Source: a bacterium | Lineage (GTDB): Bacteria; Ratteibacteria; UBA8468 | NCBI GenBank assembly: GCA_030630065.1 | Contig: DAOVNU010000001.1 | Coordinates: 1-43,792, forward strand | Reading direction: 5' to 3' | DNA length: 43,792 nucleotides | Shown here: positions 2,799 through 21,412 of the stretch, piece after piece | Layout: each line of letters begins with the position of its first letter | How positions within the stretch are numbered: the stretch's first letter is position 1 | Translations under genes and position numbers: made by a program | The notes under the pieces: generated by a model | Seen by the model: only the letters and a program-made list of their open reading frames with translations | What the model was told of the DNA's origin: nothing | The model's database searches: none

Positions 2799-3308
2799 TT
2801 ATTTAATTACTTCCAGTTCCAAATAGATATCCTGAGCCGGAAAAATAAAACAGAGATATTTTTCATAAAAATGGGTGGAGATAATAGCAAGAAATTTTCC
2901 AATAATCTGGCTGCTGCCAAAAGTCAATCTTTTCCTAACTAACCTGAACTTTTTCTTTGTATATTTTCGCGCCTTTGTGCCTTCAATAAAATAGTTAAAC
3001 GACTCTAAACTAAAATGCTGTTTGTGCAAGGGGTCGGTAAATGAAGCCACATTGGAAAAATGAGGTGTTCTAATAATTACTTTTCCTTTATTCTTGGCTA
3101 TCCGATGAATTTCTTCCATTGTTTTAACGATATTATTTAGATGTTCTAAGATATGAGAGCAGATGATTAAATCAAACTCGTTCTCCTTCAGCGGCCAGGA
3201 AAAAAGGTCCAAGTTATGAATAATATCCACTTCCGGACAATCTTCAATGTCAATCCCAATTGCTCCTTTCCTTTTATTCTTTCCGCAGCCAACGTCCAAA
3301 ATTTTCAT
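2799..3308 (-). CDS. Small class I SAM-dependent methyltransferase (Methyltransf_11-like)
   Basis: 169 aa with MKILDVGCGKNKRKGAIGIDI ... DLIICSHILEHL. The stop abuts the start of the downstream gene (TAAATG). Confidence 0.75.
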   Translation of the reverse strand: MKILDVGCGKNKRKGAIGIDIEDCPEVDIIHNLDLFSWPLKENEFDLIICSHILEHLNNIVKTMEEIHRIAKNKGKVIIRTPHFSNVASFTDPLHKQHFSLESFNYFIEGTKARKYTKKKFRLVRKRLTFGSSQIIGKFLAIISTHFYEKYLCFIFPAQDIYLELEVIK

Positions 3309-4269
3309 CTATCTTCTCCAAAACTTTTTCCGGGCTAATATTTTTCATCCGGTTCATCTTTTTATCCTCTAAAATAATATGTTCTTTTCCTACGGGACCA
3401 CATCTTTTTGGGTCGGTAGAAGCAAAAAAAGCCAGCACCTTTGTGCCTACGGCGGCAGCAATATGCATCGGTCCGGTATCTCCGGTAATGAATAACTGGC
3501 AGCATTTTGCCAGGGCGGCTAACTGGCGCAGATTGGTTTTTCCGGCAAGAGACAAAACATTTTCCGATTTTGCCAGAGCAATTTCTAACTGGTAACAGAT
3601 GGCGGAACTTCTTTTATCCCCTTTGCCAAAAATAAGAATCTTTGTGTTATATCTTTCTATTAGTTCTTTTCCCAGTTGGATGTAATATTTCAGGAGCCAC
3701 TCTTTTGCAGGGTAGGCGGAAACAGGATTAAGGCCAACTAAAAAGTCCTCTTTTGAAACTCCTTTTTCCCGCAGTACCTTTTCCGCAGCGCTTTCCTCTT
3801 CTTTTGTCAGATAAATTTTCGGCTCAGGAATTTCTCCTTTAAGGTTCAACAACTCAACCATATTTAAATAACGGTATAAAGCGTGTTTTTCCGGACACCA
3901 TTTTTTGGGCCTGAGATTATAGAAGTACCTGTATCTTAAGGATTGATGAAAACCCACCCGGTATTTTGCCCGTGTAAGAAAGGCAAGCAAACCGGCTTTT
4001 CCCTGCAAGGAGGCAATCAGGTCAAATTTCTCCTGTCGCAATAACCTAATACATTTCAAATAAGAAAATCTTTTGTTTCGATTATGAATAATTATTCTAT
4101 CCAGGAAAGGATTTTCTTCTACAATGGGTGCGGTAATCGGTGTAAGCAGCATTGAAAGATGACTCTGGGAATAATTTCTTCTCAGTAATTCAATAATTGA
4201 AGTGGCAAGAACCACGTCGCCAATGGCGCTGTAGCGAATCAACAAAATCTTTTTTACCCCTTTAACCAC
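3274..4269 (-). CDS. Glycosyltransferase family 9 (ADP-heptose:LPS heptosyltransferase-like)
   Basis: 331 aa with KKILLIRYSAIGDVVLATS at the N-terminus and ITGDTGPMHIAAAVGTKVLAFFASTDPKRCGP near the C-terminus. The start is an apparent GTG at 4269 with no clear SD. The 3' end overlaps the next gene by 35 nt. Confidence 0.8.
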   Translation of the reverse strand: MVKGVKKILLIRYSAIGDVVLATSIIELLRRNYSQSHLSMLLTPITAPIVEENPFLDRIIIHNRNKRFSYLKCIRLLRQEKFDLIASLQGKAGLLAFLTRAKYRVGFHQSLRYRYFYNLRPKKWCPEKHALYRYLNMVELLNLKGEIPEPKIYLTKEEESAAEKVLREKGVSKEDFLVGLNPVSAYPAKEWLLKYYIQLGKELIERYNTKILIFGKGDKRSSAICYQLEIALAKSENVLSLAGKTNLRQLAALAKCCQLFITGDTGPMHIAAAVGTKVLAFFASTDPKRCGPVGKEHIILEDKKMNRMKNISPEKVLEKIDENFGRWLRKE

Positions 4270-4423: not shown

Positions 4424-5305
4424 TCAAATTTCCTCAAGAGTATTTAATCCTATTCTCCAGAATTCACTTGTGCCGTGCCCCCGGTAAAGATAGAGATAGC
4501 GAGTCCCTTTTACTTCGGCGATAACTAACCTATTTCCAGGAACAGACACCACATCAGGTAATCTTGGAGAAAGATAAGAGAATTTCTTTGTCTTTAAATC
4601 TAATCTTCCGATGGTCATTGAATAATTTCCCTGAACGATATAAACTTTCTTCTCCTTTTCATCGTAAGCAAACATACCCCCATTTACAGAAGGGCGAAAA
4701 GTGCAGGCAAAACATCCTTTATCCCATTCCCCTTTTTTTACATCAAATTTTCGCACATGATGGTCTGGCCAGGCAAGTAAATATTTATTTATATAAACAA
4801 GGCCTGTACACTTTGCTCCAACAGGAACTCCACACGTAAGAGGAACAGAAGGAAGTTCCTTCCATTTGTCTTCCCCTATGTCATATCTTAGAAAATCTGC
4901 TGTGTTATCTCCTCTTAAACAATAGACAGAGTTTTCTCCATAGGCAAGCCAGCCTCCTATGTCTATTGGCTTATAATAGGGGAAAGGGGATAGATTTTCT
5001 ATTCTGCCTGTTTTAATCTCATATCTGTAGAATTCGCTTAATCTTCCTCCTCTTGTGATGTACAAGAACTCTTTTCCGTCATAAACCATTCCCGCTCCTG
5101 GTCCCACAATCTCAGGTAATATTGTTACCCCAGGATAGATATACCATTTATTATTCATGGGCTCATATCTCTCCAAATGTTTCCATCTTAATTGATAGAT
5201 GTGAGGTTTTGCATAGACCATAACTGCCGTGGAGCAGTCCTCAGGAAATCTCCCTGCTCTCACTATCTGAAAGCCCTTTACATTTTTCCATCCGTTCTTT
5301 TCCAT
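4424..5305 (-). CDS. Kelch-type beta-propeller protein without signal peptide (possibly mutarotase-like); function unknown
   Basis: About 293 aa with repeated 'xxYxxxxxxWxxL' blade-like units: FYRYEIKTGRIENLSP, FLRYDIGEDKWKELPS, VRKFDVKKGEWDKG, IGRLDLKTKKFSYLSP. The second ATG (5305) has better spacing to the GGGAGG SD than the first (5308). Confidence 0.5.
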   Translation of the reverse strand: MEKNGWKNVKGFQIVRAGRFPEDCSTAVMVYAKPHIYQLRWKHLERYEPMNNKWYIYPGVTILPEIVGPGAGMVYDGKEFLYITRGGRLSEFYRYEIKTGRIENLSPFPYYKPIDIGGWLAYGENSVYCLRGDNTADFLRYDIGEDKWKELPSVPLTCGVPVGAKCTGLVYINKYLLAWPDHHVRKFDVKKGEWDKGCFACTFRPSVNGGMFAYDEKEKKVYIVQGNYSMTIGRLDLKTKKFSYLSPRLPDVVSVPGNRLVIAEVKGTRYLYLYRGHGTSEFWRIGLNTLEEI

Positions 5306-6117
5306 CATTTCCTCCCGATTAAAAGTTCATCTATCTCTTTGCGAGAATTTTGGCCAATGGTATCGGGTCTATGGCTATCGGAACCAAAATAGAAATTTAC
5401 CCCTCTCTCCTTGGCTAACTTAAGATAATCAATATAGTTCCTTATAAAAAATTTGCTTTCCGGAGTGGCAATTCCCCAGATAGATGGGTTTAATTCTAAA
5501 GAAATGTTATTTTCTTTGAGGTTATCATAGAAAGAGATAAGCAGATCCTCCGGGATGAGATTTTCTTTGTTTGTCAGGGTTGACATCGCTAGTTCCTTAA
5601 ATGGATGACCGATTTGATTGATTCTCCTGTTTTTGGATATTTTTAAATAGAGTTTCAACGTATCTTCAATAAGTTTTGCTTTACCATTTTCTTTGACCAC
5701 CTGCTTTACTATCCCATGCTCTTCTTCTCCATAACGATGATTCCATCTGATTTTTGTCCCGGGAATATGGTGCAGACAAGCCATTACTATTTCACAGGAG
5801 TCCAGTATTTCTTCAGGAATATAATCGATGCCATTTTTTCGCACGTCTGCCTCTATACCGATAAGGATGACAAATGGCGGCTTTAGTTCTGCTTGTTTCT
5901 CTTTTAATTCCTTAAGATGATTTAAAATTTTTTGAGGGGTGGTATATACCCACCCATCTCCCTCATTGCTTTCCGGGGAGTAGTAATGTTCGGTAATGGC
6001 AATTTTCTTCATACCTTTTTTAACGGATTCAGCGATAATATTCTCCAGAGTAGCGGAAGGATGACCGCAGGGAGAAAAGTTGGTATGAATATGCAGGTCT
6101 TCTTTATAAATATCCAT
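5305..6117 (-). CDS. PHP-domain metal-dependent phosphoesterase (HisJ/histidinol-phosphatase-like family)
   Basis: 270 aa with DLHIHTNFSPCGH at the N-terminus, then ITEHY, IEAD, LHHIPG, IGHPF and GSDSHRP. This matches the PHP metal-ligand pattern. Confidence 0.7.
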   Translation of the reverse strand: MDIYKEDLHIHTNFSPCGHPSATLENIIAESVKKGMKKIAITEHYYSPESNEGDGWVYTTPQKILNHLKELKEKQAELKPPFVILIGIEADVRKNGIDYIPEEILDSCEIVMACLHHIPGTKIRWNHRYGEEEHGIVKQVVKENGKAKLIEDTLKLYLKISKNRRINQIGHPFKELAMSTLTNKENLIPEDLLISFYDNLKENNISLELNPSIWGIATPESKFFIRNYIDYLKLAKERGVNFYFGSDSHRPDTIGQNSRKEIDELLIGRK

Positions 6118-7189
6118 ATTTTTCGATAGCCATTCTCATAGCATCTACATTTTCCATTTTTGCATCAGGCGGAATCTCCTCTGTCCCAAGCATACACCTA
6201 TCGTAGTTAGGAAGAGAGGACAATAAATCAGCAATATATCTCTCTATCTTATCAGGACTGAAAGTCGCAAAAATTATAGAATCGATTCCTCCAATAACAA
6301 TCTTGTTTTTTAATATCTGTTTAGCTAAAGATAAGGAGGTATCTCCAGTCGGAGGCGGTGTAATAGGTTCTATTGTATCCATATTGATTTGAGCGATTAA
6401 TGGTAGAATATCCTTCAGTGTGCCGCACATATGAGTATCAAACAACCTTCCTTTGCTATGGATAATTTCAGCGTAATCATTCAACTGACTCATACAATAT
6501 TTCTCAAATATCTTAGGCGAAGTCAAAGTTGTAGAACTACTTTCTCCTGAACGAAATATTTCTACGGGAGCATCCGAGGCCCTTTCATAGTAAGTCCTTT
6601 GTTTATTATGGATTATTTCCAATAATTCAGTGAATTCTTTCGGATGGTCATAAAGTTCATAACTCACTTTTTCTAAACCCATATGCCATTTTATAAACCC
6701 CATTATTGGAGTAGGAGGAACACTCCCACCGATTAATCCTCTCTCTCCCACAATACTCTTAACTTTCTCTACTTCTTCAAAATGTGGAAGATATTCTGTA
6801 TGTTCAATAATATAGCGGTAAACATCATAATCTTTAATCCCTTTTATTAAGAATTCTGTGCAATAGGTAGTTTTTGCGTCAGCATTTGTTACCGATTTAG
6901 TGGAAAGTTTACATTTGGGTGTCTCGTAAGAGGTAATAATATAATCTTCTCCTTTTTCTTGCTTAACCTTGACATTGTTAATTTTTTCTTCCACAACCGG
7001 CACAAATCCCCAAAAAAGATCAGCCCCTACTTTCTCACAAGCTTCTGCATATAGTATAAGTGTAAACGGTTCGTTTGAGGAAACTCCTACAATCCGTTTT
7101 ACAAAGAATTCATTCATTCCGGGTATCCATGGAATTCTGTCGGGTTTCTCTCCCTTAATTACAGCCATTATTCGTTCTTTAGATGTCAT
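6104..7189 (-). CDS. Uroporphyrinogen-decarboxylase (URO-D/MtaA-like) fold protein
   Basis: 361 aa. It starts MTSKERIMAVIKGEKPDRIPWIP and has a C-terminal ...FDTHMCGTLKDILPLIAQINMDTIEPITPPP.... An AGGAG SD sits 9 nt upstream. It is a paralogue of 22274..23371. Confidence 0.7.
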   Translation of the reverse strand: MTSKERIMAVIKGEKPDRIPWIPGMNEFFVKRIVGVSSNEPFTLILYAEACEKVGADLFWGFVPVVEEKINNVKVKQEKGEDYIITSYETPKCKLSTKSVTNADAKTTYCTEFLIKGIKDYDVYRYIIEHTEYLPHFEEVEKVKSIVGERGLIGGSVPPTPIMGFIKWHMGLEKVSYELYDHPKEFTELLEIIHNKQRTYYERASDAPVEIFRSGESSSTTLTSPKIFEKYCMSQLNDYAEIIHSKGRLFDTHMCGTLKDILPLIAQINMDTIEPITPPPTGDTSLSLAKQILKNKIVIGGIDSIIFATFSPDKIERYIADLLSSLPNYDRCMLGTEEIPPDAKMENVDAMRMAIEKYGYL

Positions 7190-7201
7190 TCTGCTTAACT
7201 C

Positions 7202-7954
7202 CTATTTTAATATTTGCAGGTTTAGTTTATATTTTTCATTGATGGGATGAACATATTCTTTGCAGAGAGTCAAATCTCCAATCAGATACTCAAAGAAACT
7301 GCCTAAACAGCTCCCTTTTTTAATGGCTTTGAGCAAGGATTCTTTAGTTAAATTTTCAGTTAGGATAAAGGTTTTGCCTAATCTATTAAGCATCCAGGGC
7401 TGGCAATGAATATCAGAGCTACCCGAGCAGGAGAGTTTCTTTTCTCTTTTTCTTTTTTCTAAACAGTAATCAACGATAAATTTCATATCATAACCTCCCC
7501 AGGGACCAAATTCCAGAGAATCAAAGTATTCCTTCTTCTCGTATTCCAAAAATAGGTTTCTATCCCAGTATCCCTGGGGATGAGCGGCAATTAAAACACC
7601 ATCCTTGGATTTGTTTTTAATTATTTCCTCCATCTTTACTCCAGATTTTAAAATAAATGGATTTCCCAAAGAGACGATATGTCCCCAACTTTCTGCTATC
7701 TCTTCACCACCTATAACCAAAAATCCATTTTTACCATCATATTTTCTTTCTAATTCTTGAATTAAATTTAACTGGTTTTCTTTTGCATCAGAGGTCAGCA
7801 CCAATCCTAAAAAATTAAACCTTTCCCTTTTGGCTATCTCTATGTAATTTTTCTCTACTGCTTGAGATGATTCTCCCAGATGATTATAGAGGTTAAAAGG
7901 ATAATTACTCCTATAGAAATGGCTATGCAAATCCCCCATAAAAATCTTTTTCAT
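7202..7954 (-). CDS. PHP-like metallophosphoesterase/hydrolase
   Basis: 250 aa with GDLHSHF at the N-terminus, then GGEEI..WGHIV, IAAHP and GSSDIHC. Confidence 0.6.
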   Translation of the reverse strand: MKKIFMGDLHSHFYRSNYPFNLYNHLGESSQAVEKNYIEIAKRERFNFLGLVLTSDAKENQLNLIQELERKYDGKNGFLVIGGEEIAESWGHIVSLGNPFILKSGVKMEEIIKNKSKDGVLIAAHPQGYWDRNLFLEYEKKEYFDSLEFGPWGGYDMKFIVDYCLEKRKREKKLSCSGSSDIHCQPWMLNRLGKTFILTENLTKESLLKAIKKGSCLGSFFEYLIGDLTLCKEYVHPINEKYKLNLQILK

Positions 7955-7955
7955 T

Positions 7956-9890
7956 TTATATCCAAAAAACCATATTTCCTTTCATCCCTGTAATGCAATC
8001 GATGATGAACCAGGTTCCAGCACAGGTATATTGGCCCAAGATTAAACCTAAAAAGAAGGGAATGCTGTTTTTATATATTTTTGGTCCTCCATAGCGCAGA
8101 ATCATGCTTTTTAAGAGCCAGGCAAGAAAGATAGAAAACCAAAGGTAGGTAACCCAGCGATTAGAACCAATAGCAAAGCCTATTGGATGCAAAGACCACC
8201 AGAGAAATCTATTCCGCATAAACATTAAGAAAAACATTACCACTACCCCAATGCCCTTGCAGAGCCAGCCAATGCCATTGGGACCGGTTGGATGGAGAAT
8301 TTTATCGGCCGTATATTTAAAGGGCATAATTGGTCCATCTACAAAAAACCACTTATTAAGATTTGCTCCTCCGGAAGTATAGGAAAATCGAATAACCAGC
8401 CAGAGGGAGGTAAAGATTCCAATAATAAGGGCTAAAAGCATTCCTAAAAAGAGTAATCTTTTTCTCTTTCCCATCTCCTCTGCCATCTTTAAGCCATGAG
8501 CAGCTGGAGACATCGGGAAGGTTCTTAAATCTGAATGATAAGGCCAGGTAAGGGCTAAACCGGTAAGGTCTCTTGCTCCAATATGAGAAGAGCCAAGTGC
8601 AGAAACAATAGTATCTGAAGAAATGGTGGGAGCGGTTAAGGCAGGAATGCCGCCCTCAGCCACAATTCGAGTTAAACCGATATAAAGGAGAAAGGCAATA
8701 AAAAGGAAGAGTAAAGAAATTCCAAAGGAAATCCCGGTCAAAGTAAGCCAGAAACTCATAAAAAGAACGGAAAGAATAATTCCAATTACCGCTGTTCGAT
8801 AAGAAAGCATCTCGGAGGAATCATCAATCTTTTTATCTCCTTTAAATGCTTTTCTGAAAACGTCTCTTAAATGACCTCTTGCCATCCAGAGACCAAAGAA
8901 AACCAGAGTTATAAAAGCACCCATTCCTAAATGAGACGCGATAACGTCGTGAGTACCAGGGAAGCCAAGATACTCGGAACTGCTTATTCCGGTAATATTA
9001 AAAATAGCACGAAGTGTAGTAGATAAAAGGCTAAAGAACCAGAGAGAAAAGGCAACATCAAGATTGATTAAGTATGCCAAACCCAAGACAGGAAAACTGA
9101 GGCGAAACTGTATATCGACTGTCTGCCGAAAGATAGGAACCCATTGCACCAGATTGATTAAAGGAACAAAATGGAAGTAATGATGCAAAGCGTTGAGACA
9201 TCCAATCACAAAAGGAATGGCAAAGCCAAGCCACATAATTTTGTTTCTATAAAAGGGAGCAAGAGCAGAACCCTTCTCTTCCTTTACTATCTCCATCGGA
9301 AGCCTTGTCAGAGGAAAGATTAACCTTTCCTTTTCTACCCATTGCTTACGCAGAATAACCATTATAGCAATCATTACAAAATAAAGAGCAAAAATAAAGG
9401 GAAGCCAGAGAACTAAAGGTTTAATCCATGTCATCCAGGGAATGGATGTTCCTTTAGGCAAACCCTCAAAGAAGGTTCTGATATTCTCTGCTCCCTGAGG
9501 AACTAACCAGCGTTTGATATAGGGTTGAATCAGTTGTGCCCATCTATTCTCAGGTGTGGCATAGTAAAAGGAAGCAGCAAGCATCGGGAGAATTTTACTG
9601 CCAAATCCCATCGTAACCACCGAGCAACAAACAATGAGCATTGTATAGATAAGGAGTTGCTCAGAGCTAGAAAAGCCGATTCCTAACTTTCGTAAAACTG
9701 TATTGATGAGTAAAGTAAAAACAAAGAAGATAAATATTGCTCCCGCAGGCATATGGTCAATAGCAAGATAAGAACCATGGACAATGTTCACCGAATACTG
9801 GCAGGCGAGAGTAACCAAAAAGCAAAGGATAGCTCCAGTGGTAAAGGCTCTTAGAGTGAAGGGGGGTGGATTATCTTCCGGAATTTTCAT
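7956..9890 (-). CDS. Large polytopic membrane protein, putative transporter (resembles DUF6785/DUF6784-type proteins)
   Basis: 644 aa with hydrophobic segments along the whole length. No ATPase or known transporter signature was recognised by eye. There is an ATGA overlap with the upstream CBM9-like gene. Confidence 0.55.
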   Translation of the reverse strand: MKIPEDNPPPFTLRAFTTGAILCFLVTLACQYSVNIVHGSYLAIDHMPAGAIFIFFVFTLLINTVLRKLGIGFSSSEQLLIYTMLIVCCSVVTMGFGSKILPMLAASFYYATPENRWAQLIQPYIKRWLVPQGAENIRTFFEGLPKGTSIPWMTWIKPLVLWLPFIFALYFVMIAIMVILRKQWVEKERLIFPLTRLPMEIVKEEKGSALAPFYRNKIMWLGFAIPFVIGCLNALHHYFHFVPLINLVQWVPIFRQTVDIQFRLSFPVLGLAYLINLDVAFSLWFFSLLSTTLRAIFNITGISSSEYLGFPGTHDVIASHLGMGAFITLVFFGLWMARGHLRDVFRKAFKGDKKIDDSSEMLSYRTAVIGIILSVLFMSFWLTLTGISFGISLLFLFIAFLLYIGLTRIVAEGGIPALTAPTISSDTIVSALGSSHIGARDLTGLALTWPYHSDLRTFPMSPAAHGLKMAEEMGKRKRLLFLGMLLALIIGIFTSLWLVIRFSYTSGGANLNKWFFVDGPIMPFKYTADKILHPTGPNGIGWLCKGIGVVVMFFLMFMRNRFLWWSLHPIGFAIGSNRWVTYLWFSIFLAWLLKSMILRYGGPKIYKNSIPFFLGLILGQYTCAGTWFIIDCITGMKGNMVFWI

Positions 9891-10639
9891 AAATCAGAAA
9901 AATAAATAAAACCAAATTTGTTGGGAACGTGGAAGGTTGCCTTCTTAGAATTAGTAATTGACCATTGACTATACTGGTATTTGCCATTTTTTAGACGATT
10001 GACACGATTCAAGTTTAGCCGCCAGATATCCCCATTTTTTGGTGTACCAGATATCCGGGCAAAATTTCTAAATGGAATAGATATCTCCGCGTTCCAGTAG
10101 CAGTCAGTATCTTGACTATTATTCAGTGTGCCTTTGATGAACTCTTTTACTCTAACATCAGCATCCCATTTGGTTAGAACAAGCCAGCTTCCCCCTTTAT
10201 AAATTCTGGCATGATCGAGTACTGTCCCCTTAGCATTTATCTCAAAATTAAAATAGACAGAGACTTCCCTGTAGTTTGGGCTAATAAATACTTCCACACA
10301 GTCATCCCGAGAAACATCATCATCCCTCTCTGTTTGCTCTGCCTGAATGTAGCTATCTTCGCAGTGAAAGAAAACATATAAATTTTTGTCATTCCAGAGC
10401 ATCTTGACTGAAGTGCCTTCTCTTTCCTCGTTATTTACCAAACCAGCAAAGGAAAAATTTCCAAATTCTTTGGCTTTAAGCCAGTCTGGTTCATTCATCA
10501 GACCATCTACAGTTATTACACTGGTAGTTCGCCTAACTATATAGGTAGGAAGCGATTTCTCTGCTAAAAGACTGCTTTCTGGAAAAAGGAAAAGAATTGA
10601 TATTGTGCATAAGATGAGTATATAAGTTAATCTTCTCAT
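9887..10639 (-). CDS. Secreted carbohydrate-binding family 9 (CBM9/DOMON-like) protein
   Basis: 250 aa with a signal peptide (MRRLTYILILCTISILFLFPESSLLA). It contains ITVDGLMNEPDWLKAKEFGNF ... LWNDKNLYVFFHCED ... WNAEISIPF. Confidence 0.6.
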   Translation of the reverse strand: MRRLTYILILCTISILFLFPESSLLAEKSLPTYIVRRTTSVITVDGLMNEPDWLKAKEFGNFSFAGLVNNEEREGTSVKMLWNDKNLYVFFHCEDSYIQAEQTERDDDVSRDDCVEVFISPNYREVSVYFNFEINAKGTVLDHARIYKGGSWLVLTKWDADVRVKEFIKGTLNNSQDTDCYWNAEISIPFRNFARISGTPKNGDIWRLNLNRVNRLKNGKYQYSQWSITNSKKATFHVPNKFGFIYFSDL

Positions 10640-10682
10640 TTAGTTTAAATTGAATGGTCCATCACTCTTTTCTTCGTACTTT

Positions 10683-11168
10683 TTAATATACCTTTATCTC
10701 ATAGATATGGGCACTGGGATCAGCCGAGTCATAGGTTACTGTAACCTTTATAAACCTGGCATTTATACGTTTAAATATATGGATATGTCCTTTATTCTTT
10801 ACTCTATCTTTTACCGGGCCTTCTGGTTCGGTATTTTCAGTCATATCTACAACCTGTATCCATTTCTTCTTATCAGCAGAGACATCTATTTTATATTGGT
10901 AGTATCTCGGCCAATCCGTGGCACAGAAGAATATATGAATCTTGCTTATCTTCCTGGGCTCTCCGAAATCAAGTTGTATCCAGCAGGGAGTAGGACCAGC
11001 GTACCAGCCGGTATTCAGATTTCCATCAATCGCATTTTGTGGAAAATGATGACCTTCCTGAATTACACTGGCACTAACTAAGGATTCTGAAGCTATATTC
11101 TTTTCCATTTGGCAGAATATCTCTGTAGGCGGAAAGATGAGAAGACAAAAAATCAATAAACTTTTCAT
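10683..11168 (-). CDS. Secreted F5/8 type C (discoidin/CBM32-like) domain protein
   Basis: 161 aa with a signal peptide. It contains NAIDGNLNTGWYA ... ARFIKVTVTY. A GGAGG SD lies upstream. Confidence 0.7.
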   Translation of the reverse strand: MKSLLIFCLLIFPPTEIFCQMEKNIASESLVSASVIQEGHHFPQNAIDGNLNTGWYAGPTPCWIQLDFGEPRKISKIHIFFCATDWPRYYQYKIDVSADKKKWIQVVDMTENTEPEGPVKDRVKNKGHIHIFKRINARFIKVTVTYDSADPSAHIYEIKVY

Positions 11169-11183
11169 TGTTAAACCTCCATT

Positions 11184-14100
11184 CTAAAAGGTTGCTTCTA
11201 ATACCTGAATATCACCGGGAACTATTTTTGTGGTAACAGTATAGAGACCTTTTTGGCTTTTATAGTTAATTTTCTTTCCTGTTCTTAACTCGACTATCTT
11301 TTTAGGTTTCTTCTTGAAGATTACCTTAACCTTGGCCGTCTTGGCGAAATCAAACTCCTCTGGTTTGAAACGGTCTTTGATAACTCCATTATTATTCATA
11401 AGGATAATAAGCCAACCGTCTTCCGTTTTATTGAACTGGTAACCGATACCATCTCCTTTCACCTCCCCGGGAAGTATCTCCTTTGTTATCTCTGATAATA
11501 TCGTAGGCATGAAGGATAACATCTTGTTATCCTTATTCAATAGATAGGAGGCGGTGGTGAAAATAATGTTACCTTTCCCGTATCTGTTCAGCGTTGCCAT
11601 TATTCTTCCCTGATTATCAGTTATCAGGGGTTTTGCCCTCAAGAGTTTTATAGGTTGATAGGTAAATCTGGAGGTTTCCTCAGGTTCTTCTATTATCTCC
11701 ACCCCCAAGAAATCTTTCGGGAAGCAGTTATTCACCTGTTTGTTATTAAGGAAGAGTGTCCCACCTTTCCTGACATATTCTATCAATCTTTCGGCTAACT
11801 TTTTGTCAATCCTAATATCTCCTAAGGCTATCAAAACTTTATAGTTATCTAAAGTAGATAAAGAGATAGTGCCACTGGGGGGATTAGGGATGAGTACATC
11901 AAATATATCCCCATAAGGAGTGGGAGCCAAACCGATGCATCTACCCATTTCCTTCCTGGAAGGATAGATTGTCTGCATAAACTCATCAATCATATAATCT
12001 CCTTTCTGGAAAGGAAGGCTAAACCAAATATGCTTCTTCTCGTGTGGCTGTGGCATCCACCCATGATAATAATCCAAGAGCAATCCAACCGGGGTGTAGG
12101 CAGTGCCTCTATCGGGATGTTTTTTAGCAAACTCAAATACCTCTTTTAAAACCTCTCCGTGAGGAGAAAGTTCACATACTCCGTTATTATCTTTATCCTG
12201 AAGAAAGGCGATTGGTTCACACTCAAAACTAAGATAGTTTGCACCGGCAAAATAGGCGTGGTAAAGAGAGCGCCTTCCTAAGGAAACAGGCATACCGAAA
12301 TCTGGTCCGTGAGGCGTACGGACTGTCTTCTTGGCAACTGCAGATTTACCTTCAGGAGTTACATAGGCTGGATAAGCACTTCTATAGAAATAAGCTTGAT
12401 AATGCATCCATGGCTTATGATATTGTCTGCTAGCACTGCGAGCAAACATCTCACGAAATTGATAGGTAACCCCGTAATTGCAGGAAGAGAATTCAGAACC
12501 AATCATATTTGCTCCCCATTCCGCAGCATAATGGTCAAAACACGCACCACCGGTCATTGGATAGACATCATTAAAAAGCACCTCTTTTTCCCACTTGAAT
12601 ATGTCCTCTAAGAGTTTGCATCTTTCCTTTTTGTTCTTATTCAGTAAACTTAAACGAGGGTATTTCTTTGCATCTTCCTTACCTACAATCCCACTATAGA
12701 GTCCTCCTTTATCTTTACTCCAGCCACTCCAGCCATAGAAATTATTAATGTCATTTACCCATTCTGGCATCCAGAATCCCAGGAATGCATCTTTATACTT
12801 TTTCTTCCATTGCGCATATGCCTCATAATCAACAGAGTTGCTATTTAAACCTAGGAACTGCCCAATCTCGAATCGCAGAAAAGAAAAGAGAAATGGCTTT
12901 TTGGTGGAAGAATATTTTTTTGCTTCTTCGCTCAGGTTAGCAATAGATAATTGCTTTCCATAGAGTTGACCGGAGATACAGATACGAACTCTATCTGTAA
13001 TTATGGGCTTAAAAGTCAAGGTATTTTGGGACAATTGGTTATTCTTTATCTCTATAAGATTTCTATAAAAGGGGCCATATTGGAGAAGAAAATCAGAAAT
13101 TCTATACAACCCATATTTTTCTCCATAATCATGATAGAGAATTACTTTATTTATCTTGGTCTTCTTCCCGAAATTCAGTTCTATCCAGCCCTTTTGCTGA
13201 TGATATTTTTCAGCTGGTGAAGAAAAACAAATATCACCAAAAATCTTTCCGTTATTTATCCTTTTCAGGCCGTAGAATTTTCCTTGCTCACACCATGCAG
13301 TAACCTTTGCGCCGAGGGCTAGATTTTTGGCCTTTTTCGGACCAAAGACCTCTATCTCTCTGATGGCAATCCGGCGAAGTTGCATTACTCTGGGCGGGGG
13401 GAGAACCTTATCAATTACTGTCCCTGATTCCTTGACCATCGGTTCCTCTTCAAGCAATGACATTTTTTCCCATTCTGGAGTGTGTATTATAAACCAGAAG
13501 TCCTTACCAAGATTCTTCAATGGTATCCAATCTTTACTAATTTCATACCCCTGATTACTTACCAGTTTCATACCCGAAGACACTCTTTTAAAACTCCTCT
13601 TGTTATTATTAGCGATTCCTACCTGATATTTCTTATAACAATTCTTCACCTCTGAAGCACTTAAAACTCTGTTGTAAATTCTTACCTCGTCGATTGTGCC
13701 GTTGAAATAATAACCCGATGTAGATAACCGCCCTATTCTGAGTGATCTTGTTGTATCTGATAATACAAGATTTGAGAATGCCTTTGCTGAGCCATGCTGA
13801 GCCCCATTAATATATAACCTACCGGTTGATTCTGCTGCCGTAACTACAACATGATAAAATTGGTCAGGAGTAAAGGTATAATAAACTCCACCAAAATTAT
13901 TCTCGCCTCCAGCAGACCCTCCTGCTGAGTTGCCAAAACAGGTATAACAGAAACTCTTTCCGTTGTTCCTATTATCATAACCAAACCACCAGCCCGCATT
14001 TGGCTCGGAACTATCAGGCATCCCTTTTCCCGCAATTCCCAATAACTTTCCTGTGCTACTTGAGTAATCTAATAAAAAGTCAAACTTAACCCATGCCTCA

Positions 14101-14378
14101 ATCGTAATGCTGCCGGTAATATTCAAACTCGCATCATTTCCGCAATCGATATAGTCATCTTTTCCATCAAAAAATAAAGCTTTCCCAGATATTCCCTTTA
14201 CCCAGGTTGCTCCATAAATAGTTCCATCATTTCCGCTAACTGAATCTTTAGCTATATTTCCTTTTCCTCCATCAAAGGACCAGTACGCAACAAGACCTTT
14301 GGTCTTCGCTAAACATACACTGCCAGTAATTAACCATAGACTTACTACAAATACTACTAATCTTTCTATTTTCTTCAT
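11184..14378 (-). CDS. Large secreted multidomain protein: LamG/concanavalin-like lectin domain, F5/8-type C-like domain and an uncharacterised glycoside-hydrolase-like C-terminal region
   Basis: 1064 aa with a signal peptide. The LamG signature is LVAYWSFDGGKGNIAKDSVSGNDGTIYGATWVKGISGKALFFDGKDDYIDCG ... IDEVRIYNRVLSASEV. The middle region (IREIEVFG...GWIELNFGKKTKINKVILYH) is discoidin-like. The C-terminal YKVLIALGDIRIDKKLAERLIEYVRKGGTLFL resembles GH42-type trimerisation/GATase-like modules. Confidence 0.7.
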   Translation of the reverse strand: MKKIERLVVFVVSLWLITGSVCLAKTKGLVAYWSFDGGKGNIAKDSVSGNDGTIYGATWVKGISGKALFFDGKDDYIDCGNDASLNITGSITIEAWVKFDFLLDYSSSTGKLLGIAGKGMPDSSEPNAGWWFGYDNRNNGKSFCYTCFGNSAGGSAGGENNFGGVYYTFTPDQFYHVVVTAAESTGRLYINGAQHGSAKAFSNLVLSDTTRSLRIGRLSTSGYYFNGTIDEVRIYNRVLSASEVKNCYKKYQVGIANNNKRSFKRVSSGMKLVSNQGYEISKDWIPLKNLGKDFWFIIHTPEWEKMSLLEEEPMVKESGTVIDKVLPPPRVMQLRRIAIREIEVFGPKKAKNLALGAKVTAWCEQGKFYGLKRINNGKIFGDICFSSPAEKYHQQKGWIELNFGKKTKINKVILYHDYGEKYGLYRISDFLLQYGPFYRNLIEIKNNQLSQNTLTFKPIITDRVRICISGQLYGKQLSIANLSEEAKKYSSTKKPFLFSFLRFEIGQFLGLNSNSVDYEAYAQWKKKYKDAFLGFWMPEWVNDINNFYGWSGWSKDKGGLYSGIVGKEDAKKYPRLSLLNKNKKERCKLLEDIFKWEKEVLFNDVYPMTGGACFDHYAAEWGANMIGSEFSSCNYGVTYQFREMFARSASRQYHKPWMHYQAYFYRSAYPAYVTPEGKSAVAKKTVRTPHGPDFGMPVSLGRRSLYHAYFAGANYLSFECEPIAFLQDKDNNGVCELSPHGEVLKEVFEFAKKHPDRGTAYTPVGLLLDYYHGWMPQPHEKKHIWFSLPFQKGDYMIDEFMQTIYPSRKEMGRCIGLAPTPYGDIFDVLIPNPPSGTISLSTLDNYKVLIALGDIRIDKKLAERLIEYVRKGGTLFLNNKQVNNCFPKDFLGVEIIEEPEETSRFTYQPIKLLRAKPLITDNQGRIMATLNRYGKGNIIFTTASYLLNKDNKMLSFMPTILSEITKEILPGEVKGDGIGYQFNKTEDGWLIILMNNNGVIKDRFKPEEFDFAKTAKVKVIFKKKPKKIVELRTGKKINYKSQKGLYTVTTKIVPGDIQVLEATF

Positions 14379-14431
14379 CTTCTATTTCCTCCCATAATAA
14401 TTGTTTTGTTATTTTTATGTGTTACAATGGA

Positions 14432-14565
14432 CTGGTGTCTCGTAACTGAAATATCTTTACAAAGTCATTGAAATCAACAGATTCTTCGGGTTTACACCCT
14501 CAGAATGACAGTTCACACTTTTCTGTTTACAGAACTGTGCGCTTATTAACGTTACGAGACACCAG
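14432..14565. repeat. 134-bp element bounded by perfect 15-bp inverted repeats (MITE-like or structured RNA)
   Basis: CTGGTGTCTCGTAAC (14432..14446) pairs with GTTACGAGACACCAG (14551..14565). The interior contains repeat copy 3 and a second hairpin, CAGTTC...GAACTG. It lies in the 231-nt gap between the DUF1559 gene and the LamG gene. Confidence 0.6.
14479..14511 (-). repeat. GTCATT...AATCTC palindromic repeat, copy 3 (variant ATTCT/AGAAT), nested in the IR-bounded element
   Basis: The minus strand reads TGTCATTCTGAGGGtgtaaaCCCGAAGAATCTG. Confidence 0.65.
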
Positions 14566-14609
14566 TTTAAATTAGCGAGGACAAGAAGAGAACCCACCCT
14601 ACTAAATTG

Positions 14610-15371
14610 TCAGTCCCACGTAATTCGTTCCAAATCTTCTGTTACTGCGGCCTTAAAGGTGATATCCTCATAGCCTACCTCATTTAATCTTGCTTTGTTG
14701 CAGGCCTCTACATGACCATCAGCAAAGAGGATATTGGCGGCCCCGCTATGCCTCAGATGGACAAGTCTGGAGGAGCTCGTTCTTCCTACATAGCTTAACT
14801 GCCGATGATTGTTAGCGTCTGTCGGTTTATTAACGAGGATACTATCACAAAGATAAGGATAGAAGGATGGTTTTGGTACCTTTGTAATGAATGTAAATTG
14901 TCCTTTATATAAGGAGTCGGGGAGAAACTCACTGTTCCAGGTAATCCCATAGGTCGTATCCCTAGATCCGCCTGGGTAATACGGCCAAGAAGGACAGACG
15001 AATATTGAGTTTTTAGGCATTCCCGAGGCAGCAGCTTGCCTTATAGGCATATAACCTAAGAACGAATAAAACTCGTGCCAATATGCCCTGTTATCCGACG
15101 TATAAGGTAATGAGTAAGGCTCGGCAGTAGGTTGATTTATTACCCAGCCACCATAGTCACCGGCATACATAAACATCGCCAACCCCAACTGCTTTAAGTT
15201 ATTCATACAGACCGCTGCTCTTGCCTTCTCCCTGGCTTTACTAAGAGCAGGTAATAGCATTGCCGCTAAAATAGCGATAATCGCTATTACCACTAATAAC
15301 TCTATTAACGTAAAACCTTTTCGGGCGTCATAAATGTCGCCCCTACATTTACTTCCTATTCTCTTTTCCAT
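14610..15371 (-). CDS. Prepilin-type N-terminal cleavage/methylation domain protein of the DUF1559 (H-X9-DG) family
   Basis: 253 aa with [48 protein letters not shown], and [15 protein letters not shown] near the C-terminus. An AAAGGAG SD lies upstream. Confidence 0.85.
15322..15351. repeat. Hairpin + CCCTACATTTA repeat, copy 1 (inside the prepilin-leader coding region)
   Basis: CGGGCGtcataaatgtCGCCCCTACATTTA. On the coding strand it gives ...CRGDIYDAR... in the leader peptide. Confidence 0.5.
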
Positions 15372-15467: not shown

Positions 15468-16235
15468 TCAAGCAAAGATTAGCCGGATATTATTTTCCTT
15501 GAAATAATTCAAGTAGTTTTCTGAAATGTTGTTTGTGGTGATAATGGTATTAATTTTATTCAAAGGAATAACTACGTAGGGAGCCAGCTGATTAAACTTG
15601 GTATGACTGGCAAGAAGGATTATTTCTTTGGTTTTTTTAATAAGTTCCTTTTCTAATTCTACAATTAAGGAATTGTGATTCATTATCCCGTTATTGATAT
15701 TTATTCCCCCGGCACCAATAAAGATTTTTTGCGCAAAGACCTCTTTGGCACTTTGTAAAGATGATGGCCCTACCAAATAACCTTCCTCTGCTACAGAGGT
15801 GCCTCCAGGAACCGTTAATTCACCGGAGCTATCCCTCAGGAGATAGGCAACAGAAAGAGAAGCGGTAAAAACACTAATCTTCTTTTTTTCTTTCCTTAAA
15901 TATTTGGCAAGAGCAAAGGTGGTACGGCCAGTACCTAAGATGATGGATTCCTGGTTACTCACCAATTCAACAGCAGTTTTTCCTATTCTTTGTCTTTCTT
16001 CGTACAAAGGATCTTCCCTTGATTCATAGGAGGATAACTTTGGAAAATTATCCTCGTCCTTCTCTAAGAATATCGCCCCTCCCCGAACTGACTTAATGAT
16101 CTTTTTCTGGCTAAGTTCCTGGAGATATCTATGGAGGGTAGCTCGGGATACTCCCAATTCCCGATAGAGTTCAAAGGTGTTGGCGAACTCTTTATCTCTC
16201 AAAATATTGACTAATTGGTGTTGCTTAATATTCAT
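15468..16235 (-). CDS. DeoR/GlpR family transcriptional regulator
   Basis: 255 aa with an N-terminal wHTH (ELGVSRATLHRYLQELSQKKIIKSVRGGA) and a C-terminal DeoR sugar-phosphate sensor domain. Confidence 0.85.
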   Translation of the reverse strand: MNIKQHQLVNILRDKEFANTFELYRELGVSRATLHRYLQELSQKKIIKSVRGGAIFLEKDEDNFPKLSSYESREDPLYEERQRIGKTAVELVSNQESIILGTGRTTFALAKYLRKEKKKISVFTASLSVAYLLRDSSGELTVPGGTSVAEEGYLVGPSSLQSAKEVFAQKIFIGAGGININNGIMNHNSLIVELEKELIKKTKEIILLASHTKFNQLAPYVVIPLNKINTIITTNNISENYLNYFKENNIRLIFA

Positions 16236-16371: not shown

Positions 16372-17790
16372 TTACGTGTAACTTTTAATAATCCTTTTTA
16401 TCTCTTTCTCCTTTGCTTCCGGGAGAGGTTCAATCCTATGGGTCTTGAGAATCTCCTCTGCCTTTTCTCTTGCAGAATTTCTTATATCAGGGAACCCTCT
16501 ATCCGCTAACTTCTCCCAGGAATCCCTTGAAGATAGAGTTGGCATATAGATCTCCCCTGTTCTAAGTCTATTGATAGTATGTGGATGGGTAAGGAAGGTT
16601 TTACCTTCTGAGGCCGCCATTATAGCATCTAACCCTATCTCCCCATTTGATGTAGAGAAACCTTTCTTAAACCTCTTCATAATGCCTGCAATCTCATTAT
16701 CTATCACCAGTTGTTCAAAACTCCCCATCAAGACATCCCCAATACCTCCTGCACAGGAGATGATATCTGCTCCTGCAATAAATGGCAGAAGGAGGTTAAG
16801 CATACGCTCATATCCGCTCTGGATATCAAGGAAATTGGAGCTTGTGCAGAGACCATATACATCAGACGGCAACCCATAAAATGAGGCCATCTGGACACTG
16901 CAGGCTGAGGAAATACCAATCTCAGGATTACCCCACATCGGTCGCACAGTTCTCAAATTCATCGGGCTAATGCGAGAGCAATAGATTTTCGGAACATCCT
17001 TATCAATGAATGCAGCGTAGATGATAGTCGCCAGGTTTTCAGCGTTTGACTGGACCACTGTTCCTGTGAGGGTTATCGGTGCCGTCGCACCGCTTATTGG
17101 GCAGGGGAGCGCGCGGATAGGAAGACCTGATTCCACGCATATTCTGATTGTCTCTGTCAAATCCTCCGGGAAGAAGAGAGGGCTAATAGGAGATACAGGA
17201 AATGACGCTATCGGTTTCTCACGCAATCTCTTCCTGTTCCCCGCCAACACCAACATAATCTCTATAATACTCTTTATCTCATAGGGGTGATGGACTCCAG
17301 GGCCAAAGATAGGTTTGCGTGTGTTCTTAATAAGTGCATAAAGTGTGTACGGCCAGATAACGCGGGGAGGGATATCAAGCGGGGAAAGAAATCCACCGAC
17401 TGGGCTCAGATTCTCAAGTCCATCTATAAGCCGGATTGCATCCTCCAGGTCCCGGGATGTTGTCTTGCGCCGCGACCTCTCCTTATAATCAAAGAGCCAA
17501 GCATAATTTCCACCATTACGCACAAAGGTTTCGCCCCCACCTATCTCCAAGGTCTCCTTCAGATCTCTCGAGTGGAGTTTAAAACTCGAGGGGTTTCCTC
17601 TAAGCGCCTTCTCCACAACATCCGCAGGAAAAATTACCCGATTGCCTTTGACCTGGCAACCATTGCCCGCAAGGATCTCCTTTGCCCTTTTCCCCTCAAA
17701 CCTCACCCCATTCTCTCCCAATACCTTGAGTGTTGCGGCGTGTATATTCTCTATATCATCCTCGGTCAATATCTTGAACCTTAAAGACAT
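16372..17790 (-). CDS. MttB-superfamily methyltransferase (trimethylamine/glycine-betaine methyltransferase family), non-pyrrolysine type
   Basis: It contains MSLRFKILTEDDIENIHAATLKVLGENGVRF, and length and composition are typical of MttB/MtgB-like proteins. The frame has no in-frame TAG. I prefer the ATG at 17790, preceded by GGGAGGGTGGAGAA, over the ORF-track start at 17826. Confidence 0.75.
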   Translation of the reverse strand: MSLRFKILTEDDIENIHAATLKVLGENGVRFEGKRAKEILAGNGCQVKGNRVIFPADVVEKALRGNPSSFKLHSRDLKETLEIGGGETFVRNGGNYAWLFDYKERSRRKTTSRDLEDAIRLIDGLENLSPVGGFLSPLDIPPRVIWPYTLYALIKNTRKPIFGPGVHHPYEIKSIIEIMLVLAGNRKRLREKPIASFPVSPISPLFFPEDLTETIRICVESGLPIRALPCPISGATAPITLTGTVVQSNAENLATIIYAAFIDKDVPKIYCSRISPMNLRTVRPMWGNPEIGISSACSVQMASFYGLPSDVYGLCTSSNFLDIQSGYERMLNLLLPFIAGADIISCAGGIGDVLMGSFEQLVIDNEIAGIMKRFKKGFSTSNGEIGLDAIMAASEGKTFLTHPHTINRLRTGEIYMPTLSSRDSWEKLADRGFPDIRNSAREKAEEILKTHRIEPLPEAKEKEIKRIIKSYT

Positions 17791-17939
17791 TTCTCCACCC
17801 TCCCACTTTTTCTTTTGTTTCAACATTTTTCTTTTAAAGCAATCTCAGGATTTCTATGGAAATCTCTGCGCCGTTTGACAAGGTTAGAAGACATCCTCCT
17901 TGCATTGCAAATGGAGTATGCCAATCTATCTTCTTATCC

Positions 17940-18929
17940 TCATACATGTTCAGAACGCCACCAGTAAAGAGGTATTGGGGCAAAGACATCATCAATTTTT
18001 TCTGGACCAAAGAGAATCTTGACCGATTTTAAAGAGTCATCTATCCGATTTTTCTTTCCTATCTTTTCCTGAATCTTCTCTTTGTTAATGAGGCGAACCA
18101 TACCTAAATAACCTTTACAGTTCAGAAACCCTAATTCTAAAAGTAGTTTTGGTAATCCCTCCTGAAGGGGAGGAGTGATTACCGCAATGCTTGAGAAAAT
18201 ATTCTTTTCTATAATGGTCTTAAGAAGAAAGGCAACTATTTCTGCTTCTCCGCCATATTCCAATACTACTCCTTCTTGATTTATAAGGAGATAGGCTACA
18301 ATTCCCCTTTTCCTCCTGGCTAAAAATGCTCTGCTACCTGGAAGAGAAAAGAGAAGAGAATATTCCTTCAGTGTTCTTTCCAGTCGCAAAGGTTCTCTTT
18401 CATGAATCCTTTTAATTTCAGAAAAACAACCTATCTTCTCTGATATTTCTATTGTTTCAGAGGAAGAAGGAAGGAGAAAGAAATTACCTTTATTCAGAAA
18501 GAATGAATATTGAATACCAACCTGTTCCCAGCCAAGACATCGGTAGAAATCAGGATTACCTGTCCAGAGAATGGAGAAATCATAATCCTCTTTCTCCATT
18601 TTACGAATGCAATCTTTTAGAATTAAAGAGGCATAACCTTTTCCACGATAGTCAGGATGGGTGCAAACCCCACCAATTCCTCCCACCTTAAACCTTATTC
18701 CGTTACTGATAAGAATTCTTTCACAAATTATGGTATGAGCAACAACCTTTTTATCTACCTTCAGGACTCTCATATTTTCTAAATTTTTTTCATTGTAAAT
18801 ATAGTATTCATCCTGAAGTTTCCTATTCGGTTTGCCTCTTAAGGTGTAGAAAACTAAATTAAGTAATTCTATTGCTTCCTTAAATTCCTCTTTTTTACAT
18901 CCTCTTGGGCCTTCAATTAGATTCATCAT
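17940..18929 (-). CDS. GNAT family N-acetyltransferase (Eis-like, with C-terminal extension)
   Basis: 329 aa with the acetyl-CoA motif GGVCTHPDYRGKGYASLILKDCIRKM. Confidence 0.7.
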   Translation of the reverse strand: MMNLIEGPRGCKKEEFKEAIELLNLVFYTLRGKPNRKLQDEYYIYNEKNLENMRVLKVDKKVVAHTIICERILISNGIRFKVGGIGGVCTHPDYRGKGYASLILKDCIRKMEKEDYDFSILWTGNPDFYRCLGWEQVGIQYSFFLNKGNFFLLPSSSETIEISEKIGCFSEIKRIHEREPLRLERTLKEYSLLFSLPGSRAFLARRKRGIVAYLLINQEGVVLEYGGEAEIVAFLLKTIIEKNIFSSIAVITPPLQEGLPKLLLELGFLNCKGYLGMVRLINKEKIQEKIGKKNRIDDSLKSVKILFGPEKIDDVFAPIPLYWWRSEHV

Positions 18930-18931
18930 AA

Positions 18932-20377: not shown

Positions 20378-20378
20378 T

Positions 20379-21182: not shown

Positions 21183-21319
21183 TCCGCTTTTCTCCTATCT
21201 TAAAATCAGTACATCTTTTCTTCTCGTGAAGACATTGTTGAAAAAGCTTTCCTCATTTTTTTTAATCTGTTCCATAGAAACTCTTGCAGCAGAGATAGGG
21301 GTCATTTTTTAAAATATAT

Positions 21320-21412
21320 TTATAATATGTGAAAGATTTTGTTTTCCTTATAAGCTTCTATATGAATTTTGCTTATCATCCCTGTGCCGATTATCCCTAT
21401 ATTTAAACCCAT
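21320..21412 (-). pseudogene. 30-codon stub of a Gfo/Idh/MocA-family (IolG-like) NAD(P) oxidoreductase
   Basis: My own translation is MGLNIGIIGTGMISKIHIEAYKENKIFHIL*, which is the Rossmann N-terminus of Gfo/Idh/MocA enzymes. The ATG overlaps the upstream stop (TAATG), as in a translationally coupled gene. Only about 230 nt remain before the next gene. Confidence 0.5.

Follow-up and report, generated by a model that had tools for sequence, protein, structure and literature searches.

The window analyzed here is a 43,792-nucleotide stretch of a Ratteibacteria genome (GenBank assembly GCA_030630065.1, contig DAOVNU010000001.1, positions 1 to 43,792), and our subject is a block of nine open reading frames (ORFs), all on the minus strand, at 4424-15371. 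The layout of this block is that of a polysaccharide utilization locus (PUL) variant without SusC/D, in which the glycoside hydrolase (GH)-like family and the Kelch/PHP-like module are uncharacterized; we lean toward reading it as an accessory operon with which a small-genome bacterium of the PVC (Planctomycetes-Verrucomicrobia-Chlamydiae) group captures, cleaves, imports and processes a glycan. The candidate importer, encoded at 7956..9890 (minus strand), is a 644-residue polytopic inner-membrane transporter that belongs to the Pfam families DUF6785 and DUF6784 and is predicted to have the OPT/Yellow-Stripe fold. A preliminary description of this DNA had proposed a layout of capture, import and cytoplasmic processing built around a membrane protein without a recognizable signature, which it regarded as a candidate for a new importer family. 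The layout is plausible and recurs in parts (at three other loci with related gene sets, as a fusion of the secreted modules, and as the cytoplasmic genes at a further locus); the membrane protein carries a clear family signature, and both its family and its fold were already on record.

Over its full length, the transporter matches the Pfam profile DUF6785 (PF20581; E 4.6e-131, 438 bits, cut-off 25), and it also matches DUF6784 (PF20580; E 1.9e-31, 109 bits, cut-off 26.4); both profiles are matched by 56/56 of the aligned homologs. Searches of the PDB sequences with the DUF6785 profile gave no hits, so the fold was approached through an AlphaFold2 model (input of 56 homologs, no templates) that reached a predicted local distance difference test score (pLDDT) of 91.3 and a predicted template-modeling score (pTM) of 0.92. 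In a Foldseek search of the PDB, the sole fold match was barley Yellow Stripe 1 (HvYS1; entries 7wst and 7wsr), with E 3.6e-9, probability 1.00, template-modeling (TM) scores of 0.67 (TMq) and 0.72 (TMt) and 11-12% identity over 685 columns; the next match had E 0.04 and TM ~0.1, and the other folds all had TM <=0.14. To our knowledge, HvYS1 is the one OPT/YSL (Yellow Stripe-like) transporter with a solved structure. Its fold, which comprises core and scaffold domains and works by an elevator mechanism, was without structural homologs when it was solved (PMC9691689), and the full-length match is specific for that reason. With an HvYS1-type fold, elevator-type secondary transport would be expected for the DUF6785 protein. 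The AlphaFold2 network weights are older than the 2022 release of the HvYS1 structure. From the model we assign the protein as an OPT/YSL-fold secondary transporter; the fold itself is already known, and the family is catalogued in Pfam but unstudied (a literature search retrieved no paper mentioning DUF6785 or DUF6784).

At the level of sequence, the link to the OPT family proper is weak. The OPT profile (PF03169) is matched at E <= 1 by 0/56 DUF6785 members; two proteins from relatives, both in genome G030, hit it below threshold (E 5.6e-5 and 5.5e-4). When the DUF6785 alignment was compared by hhalign with an alignment of eight same-phylum proteins that pass PF03169 (alignment A2), the probability was 10% and E was 0.003, and the match was confined to the N-terminal 240 residues; an ERL-x-(F/Y)-P motif falls within this weak alignment. 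The protein is therefore, judging from the modeled fold, probably a very distant relative of the OPT family rather than an established member. The genome also encodes a separate 662-residue membrane protein (contig C100:943-2928; L131) whose match to the Pfam OPT profile clears the cut-off, though weakly (48 bits); its gene lies directly after one for an FtsX/MacB-like permease, and orthologs occur in several relatives (alignment A2).

The ORF and profile searches bore out the nine genes and the domain calls of the preliminary description (DUF1559, LamG, F5/8, CBM9, URO-D, PHP and Kelch). From 14378 down to 4424 the genes are tightly packed, and the seven junctions between them range from -14 to +43 nt; read from the Kelch gene upward to the LamG gene, the gaps are -4, -14, +12, +1, -4, +43 and +15 nt. 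The previously noted ATGA overlap between the CBM9 gene and the transporter gene is directly visible in the sequence, and on the other side the transporter gene is separated from the PHP-like gene by 1 nt. The claim that all junctions are tight therefore stands for these seven; it fails for the junction of the DUF1559 and LamG genes, which are 231 nt apart.

Upstream of the transporter gene are three genes for proteins that, read by eye, have hydrophobic signal-peptide-like N-terminal leaders (the basis of all leader calls here); by the same reading the four enzymes encoded downstream have none. The largest is a secreted, putative enzyme of 1064 residues (11184..14378, minus strand) with a signal peptide, a LamG domain at residues 71-245 (Laminin_G_3, E 1.8e-27), a weak F5/8C-like region at about 391-470 (24 bits, below the cut-off of 28) and a GH-A-like module at about 480-1064. 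No match to the catalytic domain of Pfam Glyco_hydro_42 (PF02449) was found in this protein, which gave a weak GLMA_2nd signal (18 bits). An AlphaFold2 model of residues 480-1064 (60 homologs; pLDDT 87.4, pTM 0.91) shows three domains: a TIM barrel, a trimerization-type GATase-like alpha/beta domain and a beta-sandwich. In Foldseek it matched GH42 beta-galactosidases, a GH164 beta-mannosidase and the archaeal GH35 exo-beta-D-glucosaminidase GlmA, and also a GH-A-fold beta-1,2-glucosyltransferase; the GH-A matches have E 2e-16 to 1e-14, TM 0.45-0.52 and 10-14% identity. Thus, the C-terminus that had been called "GH-like" has, in the model, a clan GH-A glycosidase-like fold. Three glutamates (E539, E629 and E719) are invariant in the 60 homologs, with E629 in a predicted strand. 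More than 180 proteins are homologous to this module, nearly all without Pfam coverage and a few with Glyco_hydro_42M, and we regard the module as a possible new family of glycoside hydrolases.

The other two secreted proteins are stand-alone binding modules, that is, an F5/8 type C (discoidin) module of 161 residues with a hydrophobic leader (10683..11168, minus strand; PF00754, E 3.7e-19) and a CBM9-like module of 250 residues (9887..10639, minus strand; PF16011 and PF06452; CBM9, E 6e-15). Homologs of the CBM9 protein (30-39% identity) are encoded within 3 kb of DUF6785 genes in the Latescibacterota loci L072, L074, L075 and L077.

Downstream of the transporter gene are genes for four cytoplasmic proteins, all on the minus strand. 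The first (7202..7954; 250 residues) is a predicted PHP/CehA-like metallohydrolase: it scores 46 bits against the NCBIfam CehA/McbA metallohydrolase model NF038032 (cut-off 80) and has no Pfam match at all, PF02811 included, and its homologs keep D8, H12, H92, H125, D181 and H183, a PHP-like metal-site pattern. The second (6104..7189; 361 residues) has the URO-D fold and is MtaA-like at a weak level (PF01208, E 1e-17, 64.7 bits, cut-off 23.9); the HemE and MtaA equivalog cut-offs are not reached. The third (5305..6117; 270 residues) is a HisJ-like PHP-domain phosphoesterase (PF02811, E 2e-10, 41.7 bits, cut-off 26.4; TIGR01856 sub-threshold) that aligns with the histidinol phosphatase 2yxo in the PDB (E 1e-5). 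The fourth (4424..5308; 294 residues) is a Kelch-type beta-propeller with a marginal Kelch_6 match (30.5 bits, cut-off 25.3) and is the most conserved protein of the cytoplasmic module. Sequence searches of the PDB gave no hits for the URO-D, Kelch or PHP-like proteins.

The PHP-like protein belongs to a rare family of 8 known members: there are seven homologs in a large protein collection, and a scan of metagenomes gave two loci, one of them already known. Its homologs always adjoin a Kelch gene. In four other loci (L144, L145, L181 and L182) the Kelch gene is directly upstream of the PHP-like gene; in the last three, identities are 76-86% for Kelch and 60% for PHP-like. The metagenome contig L144 (178 kb) has the order URO-D (62% identity), GH31, GH42, Kelch (59%), PHP-like (43%), PHP (46%), two Metallophos genes and DUF4838/CBM9. 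The gene that follows the pair encodes a phosphatase whose family differs between loci (PHP, HAD Cof-type or, in convergent orientation, histidine phosphatase), and a phosphoester step is probable because a phosphatase always accompanies the pair. For the discovery of enzymes, the Kelch and PHP-like pair offers a small and well-defined target. Relatives of the URO-D protein within its own phylum are paralogs with 22-31% identity. The URO-D-fold family is strongly expanded in the phylum genomes G005-G064 (1-2.7 Mb), with up to six hits per genome at E <= 1e-20; the genes (loci L150-L178) often form tandem pairs, once in the order MttB, URO-D, xylose-isomerase-like TIM barrel (L161), and no corrinoid protein was seen near them.

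Several sub-blocks of the operon recur. DUF1559, a GH42-fold enzyme and DUF6785 occur together in three other loci. In L023, from the same phylum, the genes encode a GntR/PBP regulator, DUF1559, an F5/8C+GH-like protein of 995 residues, DUF6785 and Gfo/Idh/MocA; in L041 they encode DUF1559, an 854-residue protein, a GH42M-containing GH-like protein, GHL10, fn3, DUF6785, DeoR and DeoC aldolase; and in L052 they encode DUF6785, DUF1559, a GHL6/GH42M enzyme and a melibiase. One Poribacteria locus has the order LamG, LamG, DUF6785 and also GatZ/KbaZ, DUF6785, xylose-isomerase-like TIM barrel. A metagenomic protein of 1446 residues (P0137; L148:10001-14341) contains LamG, CBM9, F5/8C and a GH-A-fold module in one chain; by the Rosetta-stone argument, the three secreted proteins of the window would therefore act together. 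The gene for this fusion adjoins a second F5/8C+GH-like gene and a Gfo/Idh/MocA gene. Elsewhere in the genome of the window, contig C121 carries a possible second PUL-like locus with a DUF1559 N-terminus (75% over 76 residues), a CBM9 homolog (28%) and a URO-D paralog.

The copy of the transporter gene in the window has a traceable history. The window copy, a copy on contig C180 of the same genome (80% identity) and the copy in L051 form one clade with 100% support. The C180 copy is syntenic with those in L085 and L007 (84-85% identity), where the gene is divergent from a ROK sugar kinase gene and beside the gene for the CCA-adding enzyme. Because it shares this synteny, the C180 copy keeps the ancestral position, and the window copy is a recent lineage-specific duplicate that was recruited into the operon. 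For the remaining genes of the operon, the best relatives come from outside the phylum. The closest homolog outside the genome (L051:4222-6178; 75-80% identity) is split into frames of 567 and 89 residues (a frameshift or a stop, or else faulty assembly) and is flanked by URO-D genes on both sides.

The family as a whole is widespread. A word-indexed search gave 1266 DUF6785 homologs among the candidates scored, and at least 580 loci lie in species-representative genomes; they range over metagenome-assembled genomes labeled Omnitrophota/Ratteibacteria, Poribacteria, Latescibacterota, Gemmatimonadota, Armatimonadota, Planctomycetota and others. Among relatives of the window genome, 39/41 have 1-6 copies (its own 0.99-Mb assembly has three); as many as six copies occur in genomes of 1-3 Mb, and the carrier phyla are almost wholly uncultured. 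Since the family-wide contexts are varied and have no fixed partner, DUF6785 looks like a versatile permease family that was recruited repeatedly into different loci. Three candidate associations were examined and dropped. Gfo/Idh/MocA is the most frequent neighbor and yet is not enriched in a within-locus control (0.030 near, 0.033 mid, 0.038 far); nor is URO-D family-wide (0.008, 0.010 and 0.007), which adjoins DUF6785 in no clade but that of the window copy (in the window itself and in L051). Hexuronate uptake, suggested by a PfkB kinase at position +1, was rejected because the kinase is RfaE domain I (a lipopolysaccharide (LPS) heptose kinase) and not KdgK; UxaC is encoded at +1 of DUF6785 in four loci. 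In seven loci of Latescibacterota, Gemmatimonadota and Handelsmanbacteria (e.g., L091:11907-16658), a protein of ~1580 residues that combines Peptidase_M28, the MacB periplasmic core and FtsX is encoded directly downstream of DUF6785, and the DUF6785 copies of these loci form their own clade.

Our proposal for the operon is as follows; beyond the gene order and coupling, the families and folds, the recurrent sub-blocks and the duplication of the transporter gene shown above, it infers which way the cargo moves, that this cargo is a sugar, and what the enzymes do. The DeoR regulator and the pseudopilin-like DUF1559 protein, both described below, would head the operon, with DeoR controlling it. 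A beta-linked glycan would be bound and cleaved outside the cytoplasmic membrane (extracellularly or in the periplasm) by the LamG/F5/8C-like/GH-A enzyme, with help from the two free modules, F5/8C and CBM9. Translational coupling of the CBM9 and permease genes suggests that the CBM9 protein may pass the product on to the permease. The small product would be imported by the DUF6785/DUF6784 permease, by an elevator-type and probably proton-coupled mechanism if the analogy with HvYS1 holds, and would then be processed in the cytoplasm by the Kelch protein and the PHP-like metallohydrolase, the PHP phosphoesterase and the URO-D-fold enzyme, with a probable phosphoester step.

A broader version of this proposal seems to us possible but rather doubtful. 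It would make DUF6785/DUF6784 the first branch of the OPT/Yellow-Stripe transporters to import oligosaccharides or glycosides, and, together with pseudopilin-like DUF1559 proteins and an unclassified family of secreted GH-A enzymes, the mark of a SusC/D-independent type of PUL in the PVC group and neighboring uncultured phyla; the Kelch and PHP-like proteins would form a new two-protein enzyme of a sugar-phosphoester pathway. Such a pathway could connect to adjacent genes, those for the PIG-L deacetylase, DUF6259 and inositol-like catabolism, for example in the breakdown of glycosyl-inositol-phosphates or other phosphoglycans.

A number of observations count against a dedicated glycan operon. 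All operon proteins were compared by tblastn with ~110 DUF6785 loci, and no second copy of the nine-gene block turned up; all 64 other genomes of the phylum lack the PHP-like gene, and L144 holds the cytoplasmic module with no DUF6785 within 10 kb. Conservation, which the preliminary description had proposed to check, therefore does not extend to the whole block, and the closest DUF6785 homologs lie in other contexts; what recurs is sub-blocks. The commonest context of DUF6785 in the phylum is a string of housekeeping and LPS-related genes (rplM, HMGL-like synthase, aconitase-family, gatA, DUF6785, rfaE domain I kinase, kdsB, pyrG), which is present in at least 16-21 non-redundant loci (L024-L040, L047 and L050; e.g., L035:4755-14428); the DUF6785 copies in this string form one clade and therefore represent a vertically inherited ortholog. 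Neighbors of the other copies are heterogeneous: the 135 genes that lie no more than two positions from a non-core DUF6785 gene carry 137 Pfam families, and none of these is a dominant partner. Copies in GH/CBM contexts are dispersed on the tree and form no glycan clade; a dedicated "glycan" subclade was rejected, since the tree has 5 label changes, equal to shuffles. Finally, the characterized OPT/YSL members that we know of all carry peptides or metal chelates, not sugars. The preliminary description had also stated what would speak against it, namely a match of the membrane protein to a characterized non-transport family, or a non-conserved block whose members belong to unrelated known pathways. 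The membrane protein matches no characterized non-transport family, and its neighbors, though not conserved as a block, do not come from known unrelated pathways.

In a different account, the locus is a mosaic without a common substrate and DUF6785 is a general oligopeptide or metal-chelate permease whose duplicate gene was inserted by chance. The sole structural relative of the protein is a metal-chelate transporter of the OPT family, the family-wide neighborhoods are mixed and include peptidases (M55, M20 and M28) and aminotransferases, the vertically inherited copy of the phylum sits among housekeeping genes, the window copy is a recent duplicate, and the cytoplasmic module exists in L144 without the transporter. 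We nevertheless consider this account unlikely. The transporter gene is translationally coupled on both sides (the ATGA overlap and the 1-nt gap), so co-expression with the glycan-binding and processing genes is very likely; DUF6785 occurs in GH-containing loci of at least four independent lineages; the ancestral paralog adjoins a ROK sugar kinase gene and no peptidase gene; and profile scans of the operon's proteins found no peptidase and no metal-related gene product.

The operon could instead serve envelope biogenesis, with DUF6785 exporting or flipping a glycoconjugate precursor for the LPS-core-like glycosyltransferase (GT) cluster that lies downstream and with the LamG, F5/8C and CBM9 proteins as surface or adhesion parts. 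That cluster, with the order GT9, methyltransferase (MT), MT-GT9 and GT1 (1-4269), is on the same strand and begins 154 nt past the end of the operon, and in at least 16 loci from the phylum the genes that come next after DUF6785 encode the RfaE domain I heptose-7-phosphate kinase (TIGR02198, 350 bits) together with KdsB. The latter synteny is weak functional evidence, because the gatA/DUF6785/rfaE/kdsB/pyrG string mixes unrelated housekeeping functions. The secreted protein has, as modeled, the fold of a hydrolase and not of a transferase, closest to GH42 and GH164, although one match is to the beta-1,2-glucosyltransferase; PHP phosphoesterases, URO-D and Kelch proteins are not known as envelope-synthesis enzymes; and the parallel loci hold catabolic genes (melibiase, DeoC aldolase, UxaC and ROK kinase). 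The OPT members known to us are importers, which also counts against export, and we judge an envelope role improbable.

The head of the operon and its surroundings contain further features. A DeoR-family regulator (15468..16235, minus strand; DeoRC, E 2.9e-34, and HTH_DeoR), outside the coordinates of the preliminary description, is the likely local regulator; a sigma-70-like site that matches at 12/12 positions (16281-16253) lies upstream of its gene, and a DeoR gene also adjoins the DUF6785 gene in L041. The pseudopilin-like DUF1559 protein (14610..15371, minus strand; 253 residues) has all three of a prepilin N-methylation motif (N_methyl), a DUF1559 domain and an H-X9-DG C-terminal motif, with scores that exceed the cut-offs (PF07963, 37.9 bits; PF07596, 47 bits; TIGR04294, 26.2 bits); its gene is preceded by a promoter-like site at 15420-15393. 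Of the 231 nt that separate the DUF1559 gene from the LamG gene, a large part is occupied by a 134-bp element (14432..14565) with 15-bp perfect terminal inverted repeats, whose ends are CTGGTGTCTCGTAAC ... GTTACGAGACACCAG. A family of miniature inverted-repeat transposable elements was ruled out here, as the element is single-copy in the 0.99-Mb assembly; it may be an operator or attenuator. Farther upstream, 16372-22272 holds MttB, GNAT, DUF6259, PIG-L and TIM-barrel genes. L181 runs on into an ortholog of the TIM-barrel gene at 21412-22272 (59% over 39 residues, where the contig end cuts the match), and L146 pairs an ortholog of the DUF6259 protein (55%) with a LamG+GH-like ortholog (41%); because these loci link orthologs of upstream genes to members of the operon, the functional unit probably extends upstream to about 22272, through all five genes.

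If OPT-fold importers have been recruited to glycan loci, this would explain how products of polysaccharides are taken up without SusC/D in Omnitrophota/Ratteibacteria, Latescibacterota, Poribacteria and similar bacteria, and more kinds of substrate would be known for the OPT superfamily. The operon in the window is among the cleanest contexts in which DUF6785 can be tested as a glycan importer, since its transporter gene has translational coupling both ways, with the gene for a CBM9 module and with those for cytoplasmic enzymes.

The components of the operon can each be set beside known systems. The PHP enzymes (HisJ, YcdX and the CehA/McbA type) are resembled by 5305-6117, which passes PF02811, and by 7202-7954, which keeps the PHP-like His/Asp pattern, but neither protein reaches an equivalog cut-off and here a Kelch propeller accompanies them, as does a URO-D-fold protein; we know of no description of this combination for known PHP enzymes. 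With the GH42, GH164 and GH35 GlmA enzymes, the C-terminal 585 residues of the 1064-residue protein share the three-domain architecture and weak GLMA_2nd and GH42M sequence signals, but the protein in the window is secreted and carries LamG and F5/8C-like modules in the same chain. Within Pfam DUF6785 (PF20581) and DUF6784 (PF20580), the transporter is an ordinary full-length member of a widespread family that stands apart as a lineage-specific duplicate inside a GH/CBM operon. It resembles HvYS1 and the OPT/YSL superfamily (TC 2.A.67, PF03169) in its full-length fold, as modeled, and in its similar length, but its context differs, with glycan-binding and glycosidase genes in place of peptide or metal metabolism. 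With the SusC/SusD PULs of Bacteroidota, the operon shares the logic of a co-directional cluster that encodes a regulator, surface or secreted binding proteins, a glycosidase, an importer and catabolic enzymes. No SusC-like TonB-dependent transporter or SusD-like lipoprotein was found among the 19 proteins profile-scanned over 1-22272; instead, we assign import to an inner-membrane OPT-fold permease, with a DUF1559 pseudopilin-like protein at the head of the operon and LamG, F5/8C and CBM9 as the binding modules.

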